From a bacterium (GTDB taxonomy: Bacteria; J088; JAWLBW01), in contig JAWLHK010000001.1 in NCBI GenBank assembly GCA_041690355.1, positions 186,001 through 250,000 of the forward strand: a stretch of 64,000 bases of DNA. The letters are read 5' to 3'. Shown in pieces: positions 9,332 through 64,000 of this stretch (position 1 is the first letter of the stretch; each line of letters starts with the position of its first letter). Below the pieces are notes generated by a model. The model was not told the DNA's origin, did not search any database, and saw only the letters and a program-made list of their open reading frames with translations. The position numbers and the translations under genes are program-made.

Positions 9332-12300
9332 TCACGGACAGACCTTCTGGTCGGCCCGGGCAATGCGCCGGTACTGCTTGTCTTCGAAGTCGACCCGCGT
9401 CGGGATCTCCTTGTCAGAGCCCCAGTAGAATCGGTAGCGGCCGTCGAACATCTGATCGCCGTTACCCTTGTAGCGGTAGTTGTTGACCCAATACGGCTCG
9501 TAACGGTACTCGACGCCGTCCCACCAGCGATCCTGCGACCAATCGGAGCGGTACTGGTAGCTGCCGCGCTGATTATAATCGTAGACGTCGTTGGGGAAAC
9601 CGTTGTAACGGTACTGGTTGCCGTAGAAGTAGCCGAGATAATAGTAGTTATCCCACTGAATCTGCTGCTGGCCCGCGTATTCGTCGCCATCGGTATCTCC
9701 GGCGAAACCGGCCCACACGAGATCGGCGCCGGGTCCGCTGTAGGAGGAGATCTGGGCGGGCACGCGACGGGTGCAGAACGCGCAATTCCACATGGCGAAA
9801 TCGCTCAGGGAATAGTACTCGCGGCCGGTAACTTCACCGTTCGCCACATCGTAGCCTTCGAGCCCGAGTTCGATGTAGGTGTACACGTTCGCCTGGTAGC
9901 CACCGTTCCACTCGACGAGCTTGCCCCCCATGGGAATGTCGTCGTTCGTGCCGTACGCCTGGTCCGGGCCCGGATCCATGATGGAGTAGCCGGTCTGGAG
10001 GCCGCTTACGTCGTAGTGCAGCGCGTAGTAGCTGCTGATCTCGTCGTCACCGGTGCCGAAGAATCCGTCGTCCCCGGCGCCGGAGTATACGATCACCGCC
10101 GTCGCGTTGTAGGGATAGAACGGGAACCCGTCGGCTTCGACCTCGTCGAGGCGCAGAATCGTCACATACGTGGTCGCGGGCCCGTAGAGCACGCGCACGA
10201 TCGAGGTCTGCACGTCGTCCTGCGTGTCCCACCAGGTATCCTGGCCCGGGTCGGTCTTGACATCGATCTGCCGCGAACCGGTCGGGCAGTAGGGCGCGAC
10301 GACCGTGACGAACGCCGATGCGTAGATCGACGGGTCTTCAACGCTGACGGCACGCACTTCATACGTTCCCTCGGTCGAGGGCGACGTGTACAGCCCGCTG
10401 CCGTCAATCAAGCCGGCGTCGGGACCAACTACTTCCCAGGTGTAAGCGGTGTAGATCGTGCCCGTGATCTCGGCGGAGAACTGGTAGGTGCTGCTGGTGA
10501 ACATCGTCGTCTGCGTCGGGTAGACCGAGACGTAGATGGTCGGGGCCACGACGGTCACGGTGCTGTAGGCCGTCACATCGTTGTCGTAGTCGGCGACGAG
10601 AACGACGAAGTACGTACCCGGCGTGACCGGAGCGTTATAGTTGCCGTTAAGGTCGATCGTGCCCGAGTCGGGTACCGGCAACGACCAGGTAAACGTATCG
10701 TAGGCCGTACCGGTAATCATGCCGGCAAAGGTGAAGCCCTGCCCCTTCTCGAGGGTGACTGCTTCCGGAACGACCGACGGATAGAGGATCGGATCGCGAA
10801 CCTCAACAGTGGCCGCCTCCGAAACGTCGCTGTTGTAATCGCTGACAACGTAGACGGAATAGAGGCCGTTCGAGGTCGGCGGATAGTAGAGCCCGCCCAA
10901 CGTGATGTAGCCGTCGCTGACTTCATAGTGCCAGCTGCCATACAGCGTGCTGCCCGTCAGGTCGCCCGAGAAGAGCACGGCCATGCCCGGCTCGACGCTC
11001 GCGAAGCCCGGCGTAATGCTGGGATACAGCTTCGGACCATGCACGTTGATCGTGGCCACGGCCGTCTTGGTCGGGTCGAACGTGCTCGTCGCCACAACGT
11101 GGCAGACCGTTTCAATCATCGGCGCGGTGTAGATGCCGGTCGTGTTGTTGATGGCGCCGCAGCCGCTCGTCTCCTGCAGCGACAGCGTGTAACCGTTGTG
11201 AACGCTGGTAATCGAGGCGGTGATGAGCAGATTGCCGCCGATCTCAACGTCGGCCGACTCGGGGCTGATCGTGATATCGATAGTCGGGGCCACGACCGTC
11301 ACGGTCGCAACCGCGAATTTCGTAGCGTCGCTGCGGTTCTCGGCCACGACATGATAGATGCCGTTCGCCATGGGCGCGGTGTACTTTCCGTTGCCCCCGA
11401 TGTTGCCGCCGCCAACCTCCTGCACGTACCAGTCGATCTGGCCGCCGCCTTCGACGGTGGCCGTGAACTGCACCGTGCCGCCCTGTTCGATGGTCGCGGT
11501 CAGCGGGGTCAGCGTGACGCCGCCGACAGGAACCACGACGGTTACCTCGGCCGTCGCAGACTTGGCGGGGTCGGCCTGGCTCGTCGCCTTGACGGTGAAA
11601 GTGCCCGGGGCAGACGGAGCCGTGTAAACGCCGCCGCTCGTGATCGTGCCGCCACCGGCCTCAACCACCGACCAGTTCACGGCGGTGTTGGTCGTGCCGT
11701 TGACGGTCGCCGTGAAGGTCGTCTGGGAGCCCGTGTCGACCTGGACGGCGACGGGGCTCACCGAAACCGAGATGCCGCTGCCGCCGCTCGTCGAGGGAGT
11801 GACCGTCACCGTTGCCGTGGCCGACTTGGCCGGGTCGGCGTTGCTCGTCGCCTTGACCTTGTACTTGCCGGTAATCCACGGCGCCGTGTAGACGCCCGCT
11901 GCGGTAATGGTGCCGCCGCCCGCCTCAACGACGCTCCAGGTCACGCTCTTGTCGCCGGCACCGGCGACCGTGGCCGTGAACGTTGCCGCCTTGCCGGCTT
12001 CAACCGAAGCGCTCGTGGGCGAGATCGAGATCGTCACGTCGAGTGGCACGTCTGCGCTGACCGTTACGGTTGCCCGGGCCGAAACCTCGGCGTCTGCAAC
12101 GCTGGTCGCGATGACGTGATAAATGCCCTCCGTGACCGGAGCCGTGTACAGCCCCAGTGCGTCGATCGTGCCGCCGTTGGCCTCTTCGACGCTCCAGACG
12201 ACACTCGCGTCCGTGCTATTGGAAACCTCGGCCGAGAAACGGGTGTCGCTGCCGGGCGCAACGGTCACGCTCTCCGGAGAAACGGAAACGATGACCTCGG

Positions 12301-58900: not shown

Positions 58901-59034
58901 GCAGCCCGATGGCCCTGGGGATCATCGGTGGACTCGCGGTGGCGACCGTGCTCAGTCTGCTGGTCGTCCCTTCCTTCTACGTCGTGGCGGACCGCCTCAA
59001 GGCGCGCATTGCCGCACGTTTTGGTTCCGCCTGA
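55996..59034 (+). CDS. RND efflux permease (AcrB/MdtBC-like, HAE type)
   Basis: RRPV, PDVDYP, GLVVDDAIMVLEN, KNSIILVD, RLRPILMT. Confidence 0.95.
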   Translation: MNITELSVRRPVFAWMLMGATLVIGLVAFTRIGVSNLPDVDYPTISINVSWEGASPEIVETDVVEILEESLTQVEGIKSISSRSSMGSGRITVELDLDRSVDLALQDVQTRVSQAQRRLPADIDPPVISKSNPEDQPIMWVALSGPFPQRVLSDYARYQLKEKLQTVPGVGEIALGGYLERNIRIWLDADRLAERGVTAGEVIATLRRQHVELPAGRLESAGRELNVRVLGEALDLETFRSLVVARTGTTPVYLADVAIVEDGFEDIRRLMRANGVPAQGVGIRKQRGANAVAVAQGVRATLDEVRPTLPEGMELAVNFDSTQFIEESIHELQFELVLAVILTGIICLIFLGSFSTTLNVLLAIPMSLLGTVAVIYFLGYTFNTFTLLGLALAVGLVVDDAIMVLENVHRHAEMGKSRVQAALEGTEQIKFPALAATGSVVAIFLPVVFMDGVIGKFFMQFGVTLCAAILFSYVEAITLAPARMAQFMTVHAEGGSTIDRVFKRLSSVYERILRWSLDHAGWVLGAAVLLFFAALGVFRALPSEFVPSQDQSRLMVRYQTQLGNSLEEADRLIARAEDIVRSRPEVQRALAIVGGGDVSEGRMFVTLVPPGERKLSQNEFADELRKEFRNIPGLRAFVMDLSQSGFSARRGYPVEFSVRGPEWKSLVELSETVREKLDATGLVTDLDSDYKVGQPEVRLVPDRARAADLGIPIEDVAAAVNLLVGGSRVGKYSSGGRRLDVRARLLADQRSRPEDITRLFVRTAAGTLVPLSSLVTWEEQPSLQEVSREDRQRAIALSANVAPGHSQDEALAAVQALQKEMPVGYSLVLGGSSVAFQESMGGLFFAMLLGILFAYMILASQFNSFLHPVTVLTILPLSIAGAAFMLLIAGKSLNIFSMIGLLLLLGIVMKNSIILVDYANEERENGADPRTAMLRAGPIRLRPILMTSAATLTAAIPAALGLGPGSETRSPMALGIIGGLAVATVLSLLVVPSFYVVADRLKARIAARFGSA

Positions 59035-59041
59035 GGACCGC

Positions 59042-59821
59042 ATGATTCCGCTGTCGCGCCCGAGGTTCCGCCTTCTGCTGCTCGCCCTGGTCGTCATCGG
59101 CCTCGTCGCCGGCGTGCTCGGGATCCGCTCGGAGCTTTCGGCCGCGGACAACTGGCGTACGGCGCCGCGGACCAGCATGGGGATCGCGCCGAAGGCGACG
59201 GAGGAGCCGGAGCCGCTCGTGCACGTCTACGCGGCGCGCACGGTGAAGTGGCGCGGCTGGTTCGCCGTGCACTCTTGGATCGCGGTCAAGCCACGCAACG
59301 CCGTCACGTGGACGACGTACCAGGTCATCGGCTTCCGCCTGAAGCGCACGGGAACCGCCGTGGTCATCCAGGACGACGACCCGGATCGGCGCTGGTACGG
59401 CGCGCCCCCCGCGCTGCTGGCGGAACTGCGGGGACCCGCGGCTGAGCGCGCCATCCCGAAGATCCACGCCGCCGCGTTGTCCTATCCGTATCCGCACGCC
59501 TACCGGGCGTGGCCGGGGCCGAACAGCAACACCTTCGTCTCGCACATTCTGCGGGCCGTCCCAGAGCTGCAGGTCGAGCTGCCGCCGCACGCCATCGGCA
59601 AGGACTGGATCGACGACGGGGATCTCGTCGGCTGGTCCGAGAGCGGCACCGGCGCGCAGCTGTCGCTCTTCGGCGCCCTCGGGCTCACGGCGGGTCTCGC
59701 CGAGGGGCTCGAGGTGAACCTGCTCGGCTTGACCTTCGGCCTCGATCTCTGGCGCCCGGCCCTGAAGCTTCCGCTCGTCGGCCGCGTAGGCTTGCGCGAC
59801 GCGCCGGTGTTCGGGGAGTGA
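59042..59821 (+). CDS. DUF3750-family protein
   Basis: WRTAPR.S.GIAP, WRGWFAVHSW, YRAWPGPNSNTF, EVNLLGL. Confidence 0.85.
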   Translation: MIPLSRPRFRLLLLALVVIGLVAGVLGIRSELSAADNWRTAPRTSMGIAPKATEEPEPLVHVYAARTVKWRGWFAVHSWIAVKPRNAVTWTTYQVIGFRLKRTGTAVVIQDDDPDRRWYGAPPALLAELRGPAAERAIPKIHAAALSYPYPHAYRAWPGPNSNTFVSHILRAVPELQVELPPHAIGKDWIDDGDLVGWSESGTGAQLSLFGALGLTAGLAEGLEVNLLGLTFGLDLWRPALKLPLVGRVGLRDAPVFGE

Positions 59822-59834
59822 GGCAGCCTCCTCC

Positions 59835-60045
59835 CGACCCCAGCGGGGTCGCACTCCCCGCCGCGCAACCACCTCCTCCGGGCGAGATCGACTCGCCCGG
59901 TCCTCCTCCTCCAGCGAGGAGGAGGAAACATGCCTCCGTGTGCTCGATCCCGCCCTTCGCACCCGACCCGGCCCCACGGACCCCGGCGGGGTCCCATCAC
60001 TTAGCTACCGGAATCCCCCCGTGCCCTTCGACCCCGGAGGGGTCG
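59835..60045. repeat. Three REP-like palindromes GACCCC-N3-GGGGTC
   Basis: 59835-59851, 59978-59994, 60029-60045. Confidence 0.7.
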
Positions 60046-60103
60046 CAGCAAGCCGCCCCGGACGTCACGCCCCGCGCCTTGCCTCCGGCGGTCGGAGCGT
60101 CGT

Positions 60104-60511
60104 TCAGGCGGTGAATGCTCGAAGGGAGACGCTGTCGTGGGGGAAAAGCTTCAGCAGGGGGCCGTCGTTCGTGACCAGCTTCACATTGAGGCGCCGGGCC
60201 AGCGAAACGAATTCGCAATCGTAGGCCGAGGCGCCGGTGGCCGCGGCGAGTTCGAGAACCGCGTTGAAATCCGTCTGATGTTCTCCGGCTTCCATCAGCT
60301 CGAGCGCAAACTTCATCTCTTCGATGGCCGCCTGCGGGCTCAGGTTCTTGACCTTGACCTGCAGGGCAAGAACATTCATGAATTCACTTCGCCAGAGGAT
60401 CGGCGCTCGCCACACGGCATCCTGTTCGTAGACCTTCACGGCGAGCGCATGAAGTTCGGGGGGTCGTTTGGTGACAAGGTAGGCAATCAGGTTTGTGTCG
60501 GCGACGATCAC
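60104..60511 (-). CDS. vapC: VapC/PIN-domain toxin
   Basis: IVADTN, WRSEF, SAYDCEFV.LA, LVTND. Confidence 0.9.
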   Translation of the reverse strand: MIVADTNLIAYLVTKRPPELHALAVKVYEQDAVWRAPILWRSEFMNVLALQVKVKNLSPQAAIEEMKFALELMEAGEHQTDFNAVLELAAATGASAYDCEFVSLARRLNVKLVTNDGPLLKLFPHDSVSLRAFTA

Positions 60512-60750
60512 GGCCGGCCTTTTCGCTTGGCCGCGGAAATTTCCGCATCGGTCATCTCGAAATCAGGCAAGGTCTGGTGAAAAGCCCGGAGCCTGGTGAG
60601 AAAATCCTGCTTTTCTTCGGCGGTCGGTTGGTCAACTCGCTCGAGAAGCAGAACGATTTCCTGATTGAGGCTGCGCCGGTTCGCCGCCGCGCGCTGCTTG
60701 AGCCGCTCGTAGACGTCGTCGGGAATGTTGCGGACGGTAAGGTTCGCCAT
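60508..60750 (-). CDS. FitA/Arc-like ribbon-helix-helix antitoxin
   Basis: MANLTVRNIPDDVYERLKQRAAANRRSLNQEI. Confidence 0.9.
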   Translation of the reverse strand: MANLTVRNIPDDVYERLKQRAAANRRSLNQEIVLLLERVDQPTAEEKQDFLTRLRAFHQTLPDFEMTDAEISAAKRKGRP

Positions 60751-60860
60751 AAGGTCCCTCCCCGTATTCCCCTACAAGGGGAATTTCGGAACAGTGTCGA
60801 CTGATATCATCATAACATCATCACGACATCATGGCCCCAGAGCGCCTCGCGGATGCCTGC

Positions 60861-61050
60861 CAAGTGACGAGTTTCAACTGGAACGACGAGCACCATGCCC
60901 TTGTCCCATCAGCCCTTGGTTCTCAGCGCATGGCGCTTCATCAAGTGACGAGTTGCGAGTGACGAGTGACGAGTCGTCGACAAGGACGACGAATTAAGAG
61001 CCTTGCCCGATCAGCGCTCGGCGCTCGGTGCTTGGCGCTAAGCGCTTCCC
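60861..61050 (+). repeat. Composite heptamer-repeat unit, two tandem copies (left)
   Basis: CAAGTGACGAGT...CCTTG...(GCGCTYR)n at 60861 and 60942. Confidence 0.7.
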
Positions 61051-61368
61051 CCGGGGTAGGGTACCCCTCAATTGTGCAATTAATTGCACAAGCGGAAACC
61101 CCTGAAATCATTGGAAAACAGGGGGTAGGATTTGAGCCTTTTCGTAACGACCCTTCCGGCAATTGCGACCGAAAAGGAATGCCCACAACCACAAAGAGCC
61201 TTATGCCCCCTCGCCCCGGGGTCCGGAACCGCTGTTTTGCCTCCGGCCGGTATTCCGCGAGGGAATTGCGCGGAGCGAAGTGGGGGCGTGTTTCCATCGG
61301 CCATTGATCATCGACCATTGGCCGTCCGCGGAGCGCCTGTCAGGCGCTCCGCGACGTAGCGCTTGAGG

Positions 61369-61649
61369 TTACGCGACCCGTTCAACCTTAATCCGGTCTG
61401 CTCGCTTCATCGCCTGGGCGAGATCGTAAGCCGCCTGCATCCGGTACCAGGTCTCGGCGCTGCCGCCGAAGGCCTTGTCGAGCCGAATCGCCATTTCTGG
61501 TGAAATCCCGGCGCGTCCATTGACGAAATCCGAGAGCTGCCGCCTGCTTACGCCAAGGCGCTTCGCGGCTTCAGATACGGTGAGGCCCAAAGGCTCTAAG
61601 CAATCATGCCGAACGGAGAGCCCGGGGTGGGTGGGTTTTTCATCGCCAT
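61369..61649 (-). pseudogene. higA: HigA antitoxin with a 1-nt frameshift after MAMKNP
   Basis: Body [47 protein letters not shown] is out of frame with the natural start ATGGCGATGAAAAACCCA. Confidence 0.75.
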
Positions 61650-61735
61650 TGCACCGCATGATCAGGATGAATCTTCCGGCGGTCGCCCTTCTCGTAGAGA
61701 AGCTTGAGTCCTTTGTGCCGAAAGCTTCGTATCAT
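61640..61735 (-). pseudogene. higB: HigB toxin N-terminal fragment (internal deletion)
   Basis: [27 protein letters not shown] then runs directly into the higA start region and stops at 31 aa. Confidence 0.8.
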
Positions 61736-61875
61736 ATGAGAAGTGTAACCTCACAGCGCGCAGACGTCAAAGGGCAGTGCGCGGCCTGAGCAATACTCGG
61801 CCACCGAACACCAACCGGCTGGTGCAGGCCCGGCCAGAGAGCAATCTCCGCCGGGATTCGATACCATGACCGACC

Positions 61876-62913
61876 ATGCAACAGACAGAACTCCACACGG
61901 TATTTATTGAGGTCCGCGGCGCGGGGCTTCCCGAAGTCGACGGCCTTTATGTTCCGTCCATGGCCCCGCCGGCCACGTCCGAGTCGGGCACCCTGTCCCG
62001 GCCCGGCTACTGGAACGGCAGGATGGCCTGGGATCGGGCCGACGGCATGGGGGCGCGAAGCCCGGCGCTCTCGTACTCGAATTCCTACCAGGCTTGGCGA
62101 ATCGCCCGCCTCGACGGACACCTGGCCTACGAAATCTCGTCCGAGGAACCCCTGCCCCCGACGGACCGAACGTGGAACGTCTACAAGAACGGAATTGCGC
62201 CGGCGCCTGAGATAGTGATCCACCACTGCGATCCGAGAGAGCCTTGCCCCGCGCCCAACGTTGTCTTCGTGCTCGGCGGACCCGGCGCCGGCAAGGGAAC
62301 CATGTGCGAGCTCGCCGAACATCAGCTCGGGTGGACGCACCTGTCTGCCGGGGCCCTGTTGCGCGCCGAGCAGGAGGCGGGCGGGCCGATGGCGGCGTCC
62401 ATCCGCGAGATTCTCGATGCCGGAAAGCTGGTCCCCAGCCACGTCACCGTGGGGCTGCTCAAGCAGGCCATGGAGAACGTCACCCGGAAGACGGGGAAGA
62501 GGAACTTTCTGATCGACGGATTCCCCCGCTCGCTCGCCAACCTCGAAGGCTGGCTCGAGGTCTTCGGCCGCGAGGCGGCGCTTCCGAAGATGCTGTATCT
62601 GGAGTGCCCCTTTCCCGTCCTCGAAAAGCGCATTCTGGGGCGCGCCAAGTACTCAGACCGCAGCGATGACAACGTGGAGAGCATCAAGCTGCGGTTCGAC
62701 ACCTTCAAAGCAGAGACGCTGCCCACAGTGGACTACTTCAAGCGCGAAGGCCGGTGTGTCGAGGTCGACACCAGTCAGGACCGCCAGGCCGTCTATGCCC
62801 TCGTCCGCGAACACCTCGCGGAATACACGGAGAGGGACTGCGCCGAAAAGCCCCTCACCGAGCGCTCGGAAATCCTTCTCGGTCTGCGGCCGTACCCCGA
62901 ACGACTCAAGTGA
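61876..62913 (+). CDS. Eukaryote-type UMP-CMP kinase (adenylate kinase fold) with an extra N-terminal domain
   Basis: PNVVFVLGGPGAGKGT, HLSAGxLLR, LVPS, NFLIDGFPRxxxN, RSDDNVESIK.RF. Confidence 0.88.
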   Translation: MQQTELHTVFIEVRGAGLPEVDGLYVPSMAPPATSESGTLSRPGYWNGRMAWDRADGMGARSPALSYSNSYQAWRIARLDGHLAYEISSEEPLPPTDRTWNVYKNGIAPAPEIVIHHCDPREPCPAPNVVFVLGGPGAGKGTMCELAEHQLGWTHLSAGALLRAEQEAGGPMAASIREILDAGKLVPSHVTVGLLKQAMENVTRKTGKRNFLIDGFPRSLANLEGWLEVFGREAALPKMLYLECPFPVLEKRILGRAKYSDRSDDNVESIKLRFDTFKAETLPTVDYFKREGRCVEVDTSQDRQAVYALVREHLAEYTERDCAEKPLTERSEILLGLRPYPERLK

Positions 62914-63066
62914 CGAGTTACGAGTGACGAGTGACGAGTTTCAAACAAGGACGTAGAATCCGGCGCCCTTGCTTGATCGGCGCTTGATGCTTAGCGCTTG
63001 GCGCTTCGCCAAGTGACAAGTTTCCGACAAGGACAGAAGAATTCCTGCTCGGCGCTTAGCGCTTAC
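62906..63066 (+). repeat. Composite heptamer-repeat unit, two tandem copies (right)
   Basis: CAAGTGAC...ACAAGGAC..GAAT...(GCGCTTR)n at 62907 and 63010. Confidence 0.7.
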
Positions 63067-63409
63067 CCCCCCCCTCAATCACCCTGGCGCCGGCGATCGG
63101 GCTTCCTGCATCGGTCACCTCGCCGGTCGCATCCCCATCGATCCGCACGGGACGCGCAGCCGTTGGATTCGGCCGTGCGCGCGAGCGTTTCGAAGGCCGC
63201 TGGGTGGCAAAGAGAATGGAATTGCGGCCTACGGCCTCTTGCGTTGGCGATAGTGCAACCTGTCGACAACCGGAACACTGCATCGTTTCGTTACGTTTGA
63301 CACTTGGGGACGACGACTGTACCCTGCCCTCAACAGACTTGGCTCTCCCGGGAGCACCCCGATTTCTTTCGGAAGCATTATCGCGCTGCGATCCACAGAA
63401 GGGTTACCG

Positions 63410-64000
63410 ATGGACCAGACTCGACGCTCGGCTGCTTGCTTCATCATCCTTGTACTGTCCGCCGTTCTTCTGTCGTGTTCGGCCGAAACCGACCCACAAC
63501 CCGTTCACCAGAACGTTTGCGGTGACGGCGTCGTCAGCGGCGCCGAAGTCTGCGATGACGGCAACCGCGATACCGAGAAAACGTGTGCCGACGGCGTCCC
63601 TGCGTGCGTCGCCTGCAACGATTCGTGCACCGGTTTCGAAAACCTCGTCGGAAACTGGTGCGGCGACGGGATAGTGAACGGCAGCGAGGTCTGCGACGAC
63701 GGCAATCTGCTCACCGAAACGGCCTGCCCGGCGGGCACCGCCTCCTGCACGCTCTGCAGCGCCGACTGCTCGCAAGAGCTCTCGCTGACGGGCCCGGTTT
63801 GCGGCGACGGTAAAGTCAACGGTACAGAAGTATGCGACGACGGCAACACCTTGACAGAGACGCGCTGTCCTGGCGGCGCGGCCAGCTGCACCGCATGCGA
63901 TTCGACCTGTACGATTCCGCTGACGTTACCGGGGGGGTTCTGCGGCGACGGCGTCAAACAAGCCTCTGAAGTCTGCGATGACGGCAACGCCGTAACCGAA
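63410..64000 (+). CDS. Lipoprotein with myxobacterial Cys-rich repeats (DUF4215-like); 3' end beyond window
   Basis: Hand translation MDQTRRSAACFIILVLSAVLLSC...CGDGVVSGAEVCDDGN...CGDGIVNGSEVCDDGN; 4 repeats visible. Confidence 0.88.
   Translation, partial: MDQTRRSAACFIILVLSAVLLSCSAETDPQPVHQNVCGDGVVSGAEVCDDGNRDTEKTCADGVPACVACNDSCTGFENLVGNWCGDGIVNGSEVCDDGNLLTETACPAGTASCTLCSADCSQELSLTGPVCGDGKVNGTEVCDDGNTLTETRCPGGAASCTACDSTCTIPLTLPGGFCGDGVKQASEVCDDGNAVTE

Follow-up and report, generated by a model that had tools for sequence, protein, structure and literature searches.

Why would a bacterium that already encodes PyrH and Cmk carry a further kinase of the type that eukaryotes use for UMP and CMP, joined to a domain of no named family, and where did such a protein come from? 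The question is raised by a gene at positions 61876..62913 of a 64,000-nucleotide stretch of bacterial DNA (the window; NCBI GenBank assembly GCA_041690355.1, contig JAWLHK010000001.1, positions 186,001 to 250,000; GTDB lineage J088, JAWLBW01). In the reading that we favor, at a probability of roughly 0.6, the gene product is predicted to be an active pyrimidine nucleoside monophosphate (NMP) kinase of eukaryotic descent, fused with an N-terminal domain (N-domain) and a tail that would act in cis, and its family would have entered bacteria once, long ago, and then spread horizontally. The gene and its three parts are as follows.

61876..62913, plus strand: whole fusion gene (P0001), 345 amino acids plus a stop codon, ATG start, from the open reading frame (ORF) list and its translation
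61876..62250, plus strand: orphan N-domain, residues 1-125, lacking a Pfam or NCBIfam match; all-beta with seven strands in an AlphaFold 2 (AF2) model
62251..62823, plus strand: short-LID NMP kinase domain of the eukaryotic UMP-CMP kinase type, residues 126-316, from matches to Pfam ADK, TIGR01359 and the PDB
62824..62910, plus strand: conserved C-terminal tail, residues 317-345, core PLTERSEILLGLRPYP, conserved in bacteria and in algal fusions

Family affinity of the kinase domain is clear at the level of the fold and graded below it. Pfam ADK (PF00406) matches residues 132-292 at 127.7 bits against a cut-off of 26.8 (E 5e-37) and is covered from profile position 1 to 150 of 151. The top NCBIfam model is TIGR01359 (UMP-CMP kinase), which scores 183.9 bits and is matched from position 1 to 184 of 185; TIGR01360 (adenylate kinase isozyme 1) follows at 140.1 bits. 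Models of bacterial adenylate kinase (Adk) peak at 122.9-123.5 bits (TIGR01351, 122.9 against a cut-off of 168; NF001381, 123.5 against 187), and all 19 of the bacterial Adk models listed score below their own cut-offs. The profile comparison, 183.9 versus 122.9-123.5 bits, thus favors the UMP-CMP type. Solved structures rank in the same way, as the top four PDB matches are the UMP-CMP kinases 1qf9 (Dictyostelium), 1uky (yeast), 7e9v and 1tev (both human), at 146-138 bits, and no chain named adenylate kinase exceeds 123.9 bits against the window protein.

The residues that distinguish these enzymes are in place. The preliminary description of the locus had quoted four kinase motifs from the sequence, and all are found in the translation: PNVVFVLGGPGAGKGT at residues 127-142, GWTHLSAGALLR at 152-163, NFLIDGFPRSLAN at 210-222 and RSDDNVESIKLRF at 262-274. 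The alignment to 1qf9 is gap-free across the P-loop, the LSAGxLLR NMP site, DGFPR with the Asn four residues on, and the short RSDDN LID, with GFPR-SLAN and GFPR-NEEN aligned between the window protein and 1qf9. The Asn four residues after GFPR is the pyrimidine-site residue of the Dictyostelium enzyme, and adenylate kinases carry Gln at the position after GFPRxxx. All 81 bacterial copies examined have this Asn (Asn222, GFPRxxxN). Across the P-loop, NMP site and LID, 17 of 19 sites are invariant in all 81 copies, and each of the remaining two is conserved in 80; in the window protein itself, the P-loop, the NMP-site Arg and DGFPR, and the LID Arg and Asp are all intact. The assignment to the eukaryotic UMP-CMP kinase type made in the preliminary description is therefore upheld by the best-scoring model, by the four best solved relatives and by the invariance of Asn222.

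The N-domain is a different matter. Residues 1-130 gave no Pfam or NCBIfam match at E <= 0.1, and the features by which this part had been described earlier are all present, namely EVRGAGLPEVDGLY at 12-25, four Trp residues (46, 52, 74 and 100) and APAP at 108-111. An exhaustive HMMER search of 1.84 billion representative proteins retrieved only 72 proteins that match the N-domain at E <= 0.001, mostly the same fusion or fragments of it. The exceptions look eukaryotic: P0127, P0129 and P0130 are fusions with long low-complexity linkers, and P0138 is an 807-residue low-complexity protein. The module also recurs in tandem in a more distant form, with two copies in P0177 and four in P0189, the latter listed as an MMETSP transcript with a relative, P0193, from EukProt. 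A profile of the fusion proteins alone, from an alignment that excludes the target tandem-module sequences, matched the tandem-module proteins in hhalign with a probability of 90% (E 1.6e-6) over 110 columns, which is the whole domain. These protist proteins (P0189, P0193 and P0177) have Gly, Trp and Pro core positions in common with the N-domain at only 21-32% identity; their repeats lack the 14-residue SESG-containing insert and the numerous charged positions that are invariant in the N-domain when it is joined to a kinase, and the proteins have no kinase attached and belong to no Pfam family. On this profile evidence, the N-domain belongs to a protist module family that is without description. 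The likeness to a module of algal and stramenopile proteins, offered in the preliminary description, accordingly gains substance both from the hhalign link to the MMETSP and EukProt protist modules and from the whole fusion in Triparma strigata and Bolidomonas, treated below.

Structure prediction gave a confident model of the N-domain and an unconvincing PDB match. The full-length AF2 model, built from 24 similar sequences, has a predicted local distance difference test (pLDDT) score of 80-93 in the kinase and 30-60 in the N-domain. For the N-domain it is superseded by an N-domain-only AF2 model from a diverse alignment, which reaches pLDDT 91.7 and a predicted TM-score (pTM) of 0.83 and is all-beta with seven strands. 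Foldseek found no match to this model in the PDB better than E 0.52, and VIA-align against 48,161 chains gave a best Z of 4.1, where the tool note states 7-8 as the typical best value without a clear Foldseek match. The N-domain is therefore confidently predicted, as far as the model goes, and without a convincing structural relative; a missing structural match does not prove a new fold. A predicted complex of kinase and N-domain scored 0.00 (mark 0.32) and carries no weight either way.

Constraint on the N-domain is as strong as that on the enzyme. From algae to bacteria, 35 of its residues are invariant, and the charged and other invariant positions include E20, D22, E36, N47, D53, R54, D56, R61, R75, R78, D80, H82 and K104. 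The tail is likewise conserved: the motif PLTERxEILLGLRPYP recurs in the bacterial alignment, itself nearly gap-free, residues P326, L327, E332, L335, G336, R338 and Y340 are invariant (n=24 bacterial sequences), and the algal fusions end in the same tail. The median ratio of nonsynonymous to synonymous substitution rates (dN/dS) is 0.093 over 463 pairs with dS 0.2-1.5, with values of 0.073 for the N-domain, 0.100 for the kinase and 0.16 for the tail, so the protein is under purifying selection throughout. In bacteria, the N-domain and tail never turned up apart from the kinase. Because they are constrained as strongly as the kinase and stay attached to it, we infer that they act on it in cis, as a binding, targeting or regulatory module.

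Three side observations concern where else the module may occur. The N-domain model has a single neighbor that stands out in the viral structure library, BFVD A0A516MNE9 (267 amino acids; E 0.016, probability 1.00, TMq 0.54, 126 columns, 21% identity). The ESM Atlas returned weak leads only (score 0.76), to hypothetical proteins of Haptophyta, Nucleocytoviricota and Bacillariophyta; the BFVD entry and the weak Nucleocytoviricota lead together hint that the module may also be present in giant viruses of protists. Finally, in the metagenomic protein P0122 (322 amino acids) the N-domain comes after a class-I methyltransferase domain, and the protein stops where the kinase would start. As a methyltransferase lies upstream of the kinase both at locus L075 and on a Comamonas plasmid, P0122 may represent two neighboring genes read through as one on a truncated contig.

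The closest counterparts outside bacteria are algal. A search with P0129 led to Triparma strigata TrST_g2498 (P0205, 344 amino acids) and to a Bolidomonas protein from MMETSP/EukProt (P0214, 363 amino acids). The Triparma fusion is 61% identical to the window protein over 345 residues with one 3-residue gap, tail included, and both algal fusions have the three-part architecture and the invariant N-domain residues in common with the bacterial copies. They lack the bacterial 'PCP' linker, form a separate clade and, unlike the tested bacterial members, score above the TIGR01359 cut-off (210.5 and 213.1 bits). Other eukaryote-type relatives differ by a second N-domain, a long low-complexity linker or an extended N-terminus: P0197, P0198 and P0200 place two near-identical tandem N-domains ahead of one kinase, and P0202 consists of three tandem plain UMP-CMP kinase domains with no N-domain. 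Domain duplication seems restricted to the eukaryote-type branch of the family. In the literature searched, no account of the fusion of this N-domain with a kinase was found, and no published function for the algal fusions.

The direction of transfer was examined by maximum likelihood, in a tree that comprised 33 bacterial copies and 14 eukaryote-type fusions and had two plain-kinase domains of P0202 as outgroup. The host Adk had been tried as an outgroup but gave a rogue branch with a length of 10 and was dropped. All bacterial copies fall in a single clade whose internal branches are very short (ultrafast bootstrap 100, Shimodaira-Hasegawa-like approximate likelihood ratio test [SH-aLRT] 99, and 100% of 200 bootstrap trees). 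Its sister is P0213 (97/92), the next branch is a clade of Triparma, Bolidomonas and P0204 (96/98), and the bacterial and algal clades both lie inside deeper eukaryote-type branches. The non-bacterial fusions formed a single clade in 0% of the 200 bootstrap trees, and forcing them together cost 22.3 log-likelihood units (approximately unbiased [AU] test, p-AU 0.020). Two possibilities had been raised in the preliminary description, transfer from a eukaryote to a bacterium or a bacterial pyrimidine-kinase clade of its own. The tree contains the latter as a distinct clade (100/99), and the nesting of that clade among eukaryote-type fusions, together with the p-AU of 0.020, favors the former.

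Within bacteria, the fusion is widespread. A word-indexed search returned at least 119 full-length homologues with 97-100% query coverage and 71-78% identity; named sources among the matches listed are Pirellulaceae, Opitutaceae, Vicinamibacterales, Cellvibrionaceae, Halomonas, Micavibrio and Roseovarius. In species-representative genomes (one per species), 212 stretches encode a relative, and all locus-level counts given here refer to the best 80 of these 212. The 80 loci span ten phyla: Planctomycetota (38), Verrucomicrobiota (17), Pseudomonadota (14), Myxococcota (3), Acidobacteriota (2), Vulcanimicrobiota (2) and one locus each in Gemmatimonadota, Bdellovibrionota, Thermodesulfobacteriota and Spirochaetota. 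Across them, full-length relatives are 67-78% identical to the window protein. Many of the carrier groups are commonly associated with algae. The family tree of 82 rows is star-like, with Planctomycetota and Verrucomicrobiota interleaved, and taxon labels cluster on it (17 changes versus 38.1 in shuffles). The GC content of the gene, 45-66%, tracks that of the host flanks (r = 0.87, 80 loci), and dS is saturated in 2775 of 3240 pairs of bacterial copies, which together point to long, stable residence rather than a recent sweep. One of 72,556 plasmid records, a 266-kb Comamonas plasmid, carries the fusion, none of 50,697 phage records has a full-length match, and viral contigs searched with both the protein and an alignment yielded no relative. 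In PADLOC-DB (systems described by 2023), neither the whole protein nor the N-domain matched any family at E <= 0.001.

What the protein adds to its host can be framed by the enzymes already there. The window comes from the interior of a 438-kb contig in a 4.64-Mb genome that is 100% complete in 42 contigs and encodes PyrH (337.7 bits), Cmk (203.2 bits) and Adk. The host Adk is 35% identical to the fusion over 131 residues and differs from it by a long Cys-rich LID. PyrH and Cmk also score above cut-off in all five other carriers tested (Marinobacter, Bythopirellula, Aporhodopirellula, Halomonas and an acidobacterium). Since the host retains PyrH, Cmk and Adk, the fusion kinase would be an additional route and not a replacement. 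None of 40 related genomes contains the fusion gene at E <= 1e-30, and the gene is accessory in this genome. Only one of those 40 belongs to the host's family and another three to its phylum, which marks the host lineage as sparsely sampled.

These results can be joined into the following model. A soluble kinase would use ATP to phosphorylate UMP and CMP, and probably dCMP, to the diphosphates, working beside the host PyrH, Cmk and Adk. The three-part protein would have arisen in eukaryotes, where bolidophyte algae keep it and protists have the module in other arrangements; a single ancient entry into bacteria would then have been followed by horizontal spread over at least ten phyla. The Pseudomonadota copies are carried partly on genomic islands and on one plasmid, and the window copy lies in a patch rich in toxin-antitoxin genes.

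Several points weigh against this model. The window protein (183.9 bits) and two further bacterial members (183.9 and 186.2 bits) fall below the curated TIGR01359 cut-off of 207.6, and the predicted substrate preference is drawn from homology and one specificity residue. Among the bacterial tips, the window copy sits on the longest branch (0.49-0.52, with a median of 0.14-0.23), which could reflect relaxed or altered constraint in this host, though every catalytic residue is intact. In the tree, only two of the 14 eukaryote-type fusions are named eukaryotic by source; the others are metagenome or transcriptome proteins judged eukaryotic by their linkers and architecture. The root is set by two domains of one plain-kinase protein, P0202, and the p-AU of 0.02 is moderate and comes from an AU test run after the tree was seen. 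Lastly, clustering of all ORFs of the 80 loci revealed no conserved operon partner.

Genes around the fusion in the window, and the repeats between them, are listed here in window numbering.

60104..60750, minus strand: vapBC-type pair, apparently intact, with a PIN toxin gene at 60104-60511 (Pfam PIN, E 2.8e-8) and a FitA-like ribbon-helix-helix (RHH) antitoxin gene at 60508-60750 (FitA-like_RHH, E 3.4e-15)
60858..61045, no strand assigned: upstream interspersed repeat, a run of the GTGACGA heptamer plus a GCGCTTGGCGCT-like motif (repeat families D3-D8, BLAST hits on most contigs)
61369..61659, minus strand: intact higA antitoxin gene (TIGR02607, 103.2 bits against a cut-off of 47.7)
61640..61735, minus strand: higB remnant of 31 codons (HigB-like_toxin profile positions 2-26 of 91, E 0.003)
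62904..63065, no strand assigned: downstream copy of the interspersed repeat, starting within the last codons of the kinase gene and overlapping its stop codon
63410 onward to ~65761, plus strand: 783-residue DUF4215 repeat protein with a signal-like N-terminus and 141-nt (47-residue) Cys-rich repeats

The preliminary description had placed the gene beside a decayed higBA pair and between repeat units, and each statement holds in part. The toxin gene higB is indeed decayed, to 31 codons, and higA is intact, so that higA is an orphan antitoxin gene. Repeats do flank the kinase gene, but they are not specific to it, as the host genome contains 78 tandem GTGACGA arrays of up to 10 units on 27 of its 42 contigs, and the repeat 14-mer, expected 0.03 times from base composition, is found 119 times. 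Repeats found genome-wide do not delimit the kinase gene; they may be a REP- or MITE-like element or a regulatory site. An integron cassette, which the many toxin-antitoxin genes and the repeats on both sides had brought to mind, was considered and rejected for the same reason and because the integron integrase lies only on another contig, C4. There it occupies C4:107202-108089 (TIGR02249, 449 bits against a cut-off of 265, the sole match above cut-off), and a split integrase-like gene lies 2-3 kb away at C4:104075-104842. The PIN toxin and RHH antitoxin genes of the vapBC-type pair overlap by 4 bases. A sigma-70-like site was found at 61770-61742 on the minus strand, just upstream of the higB remnant; the promoter scan found none directly upstream of the kinase gene on the plus strand. 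An Rfam scan of 59000-64000 gave no match at E <= 0.1. Downstream of the DUF4215 protein, large secreted-looking proteins continue.

Neighborhoods in other carriers are heterogeneous. The nearest-neighbor scan covered 149 of 155 ORFs, the six longest (>900 amino acids) being left out, and found functionally diverse genes, mostly metabolic and unrelated to one another. The commonest non-shadow cluster, a sulfatase-like paralogue, occurs at 15 of the 80 loci, and orientation shows little bias (44 co-directional and 34 opposite upstream; 38 and 39 downstream). Island genes accompany the Pseudomonadota copies: a TraI_2 relaxase with YhaV/PrlF and AbiEi/AbiEii pairs in L080; an IS3 transposase, DUF932, YqaJ and a recombination-directionality factor in L083; IS4 and a MerA-like reductase in L075; a topoisomerase in L059, L066 and L094; and HsdM in L079. 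A co-directional NUDIX gene lies 3' of the kinase at four of the 14 Pseudomonadota loci (L036, L079, L083 and L084) and on the Comamonas plasmid. These NUDIX genes encode 176-188 amino acids, are assigned no further than the NUDIX family and belong to one proteobacterial subclade; the L084 copy overlaps the kinase stop codon by 4 bases, and the plasmid copy (L095) is at 10100-10624 of its locus. A functional pairing of NUDIX protein and kinase may be limited to this subclade. L083, L084 and the Comamonas plasmid also have an RF3 paralogue close by; on the plasmid, the other neighbors are a methyltransferase, a TraR/DksA protein and an integrase.

Against this background, other explanations of the gene can be weighed. 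The fusion might have originated in bacteria, for example in the Planctomycetota-Verrucomicrobiota group, and passed from there to bolidophytes and other protists. Bacterial copies are far commoner in databases, that group supplies 55 of the 80 best loci, just two eukaryotic sources are named, and gene transfers from bacteria to algae are commoner than the reverse. We nevertheless consider a bacterial origin unlikely, as the bacterial clade is tight and nested among deeper, more diverse eukaryote-type fusions, the alternative topology is rejected at the p-AU given above, the kinase type is native to eukaryotes with the algal copies fitting TIGR01359 better, and tandem repeats and doubled N-domains occur only in eukaryote-type proteins. 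It is somewhat less probable still that the protein is an AK1-like, AMP-specific adenylate kinase, in effect a second Adk with an appended domain. Membership in the Pfam family ADK, the 140 bits with TIGR01360, the many database records so named and the score below the TIGR01359 cut-off would fit such an enzyme, but TIGR01359 leads TIGR01360 by 44 bits, the four best solved relatives are UMP-CMP kinases that rank above every chain named adenylate kinase, and all 81 copies have the Asn of the Dictyostelium enzyme after GFPRxxx, where adenylate kinases have Gln.

A role in conflict, in which an island-borne gene would serve nucleotide-pool repair, counter-defense or defense, for example against nucleotide-depleting toxins or phage, is suggested by the company the gene keeps: vapBC and the higA/higB-remnant module around the window copy; YhaV/PrlF, AbiEi/AbiEii, relaxase, transposase and HsdM genes on the Pseudomonadota islands; the co-directional NUDIX gene of the Comamonas plasmid and of four among the 14 Pseudomonadota loci; and macro-domain genes near the kinase in L080 and L049. 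We attach a similarly low probability to it, given that the protein has no PADLOC match and no relative on the 50,697 phage records or viral contigs, that no partner is conserved over the 80 loci and the Planctomycetota and Verrucomicrobiota neighbors are mostly ordinary metabolic genes, that GC amelioration and saturated dS imply long stable residence, and that the existence of algal homologues speaks for a cellular role of a housekeeping kind. An artifact is hardly credible, whether through chimeric assembly or through contamination with DNA of a eukaryote or of a different bacterium. GC content does drop to 0.60-0.64 in the last 4 kb from a window mean of 0.66, but the gene sits in the interior of a 438-kb contig, its GC of 0.649 and third-position GC (GC3) of 0.82 match the host, the host's own genome-wide repeat stands on both sides with one copy overlapping the stop codon, and the protein falls in the bacterial clade, not the algal one.

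The favored reading, an ancient eukaryotic pyrimidine kinase now resident in bacteria, would matter for several reasons. Well-supported gene transfers from eukaryotes to bacteria are few in number, and the gene transferred here would be that of a core-metabolism enzyme, for reactions that in bacteria already have unrelated enzymes of their own. That hundreds of species in ten phyla keep the gene under strong purifying selection suggests a benefit beyond current pyrimidine-metabolism schemes. One tentative idea, which we think doubtful though less so than the explanations just discussed, is that the N-domain is a new fold with a ligand-binding or catalytic site of its own, making the kinase sensor-coupled or bifunctional. 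If so, a new function of the N-domain, and not plain UMP and CMP phosphorylation, would explain both the single capture and the strong selection in ten phyla. Small, soluble and attached to an assayable enzyme, the N-domain also offers a tractable entry to an undescribed protist module family, and culturable strains of Marinobacter, Halomonas and the Rhodopirellula group carry the fusion.

Compared with known systems, the fusion kinase stands closest to UmpK of Dictyostelium (1QF9 and the 1UKE-5UKD series), yeast uridylate kinase (1UKY) and the human enzyme (1TEV and 7E9V), with which it has the fold and the short LID in common. The P-loop GGPGAGKGT, LSAGxLLR, DGFPRxxxN and RSDDNxESIKxRF of these eukaryotic enzymes align with residues 126-312 of the window protein without large gaps (E 1e-41 to 3e-39). 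The differences lie in architecture, score and setting: eukaryotic UMP-CMP kinases are single domains of 194-214 residues, to which the window protein adds a 125-residue N-domain and a tail of about 30 residues; the bacterial fusion members fall 21-24 bits short of the curated TIGR01359 cut-off; and the host is bacterial and already owns PyrH and Cmk. With bacterial Adk (TIGR01351), the fusion kinase has the P-loop NMP-kinase fold in common. PyrH (TIGR02075) and Cmk (TIGR00017) catalyze the reactions proposed for the fusion kinase, but PyrH belongs to an unrelated fold family and Cmk resembles it at the P-loop only (E 0.017).

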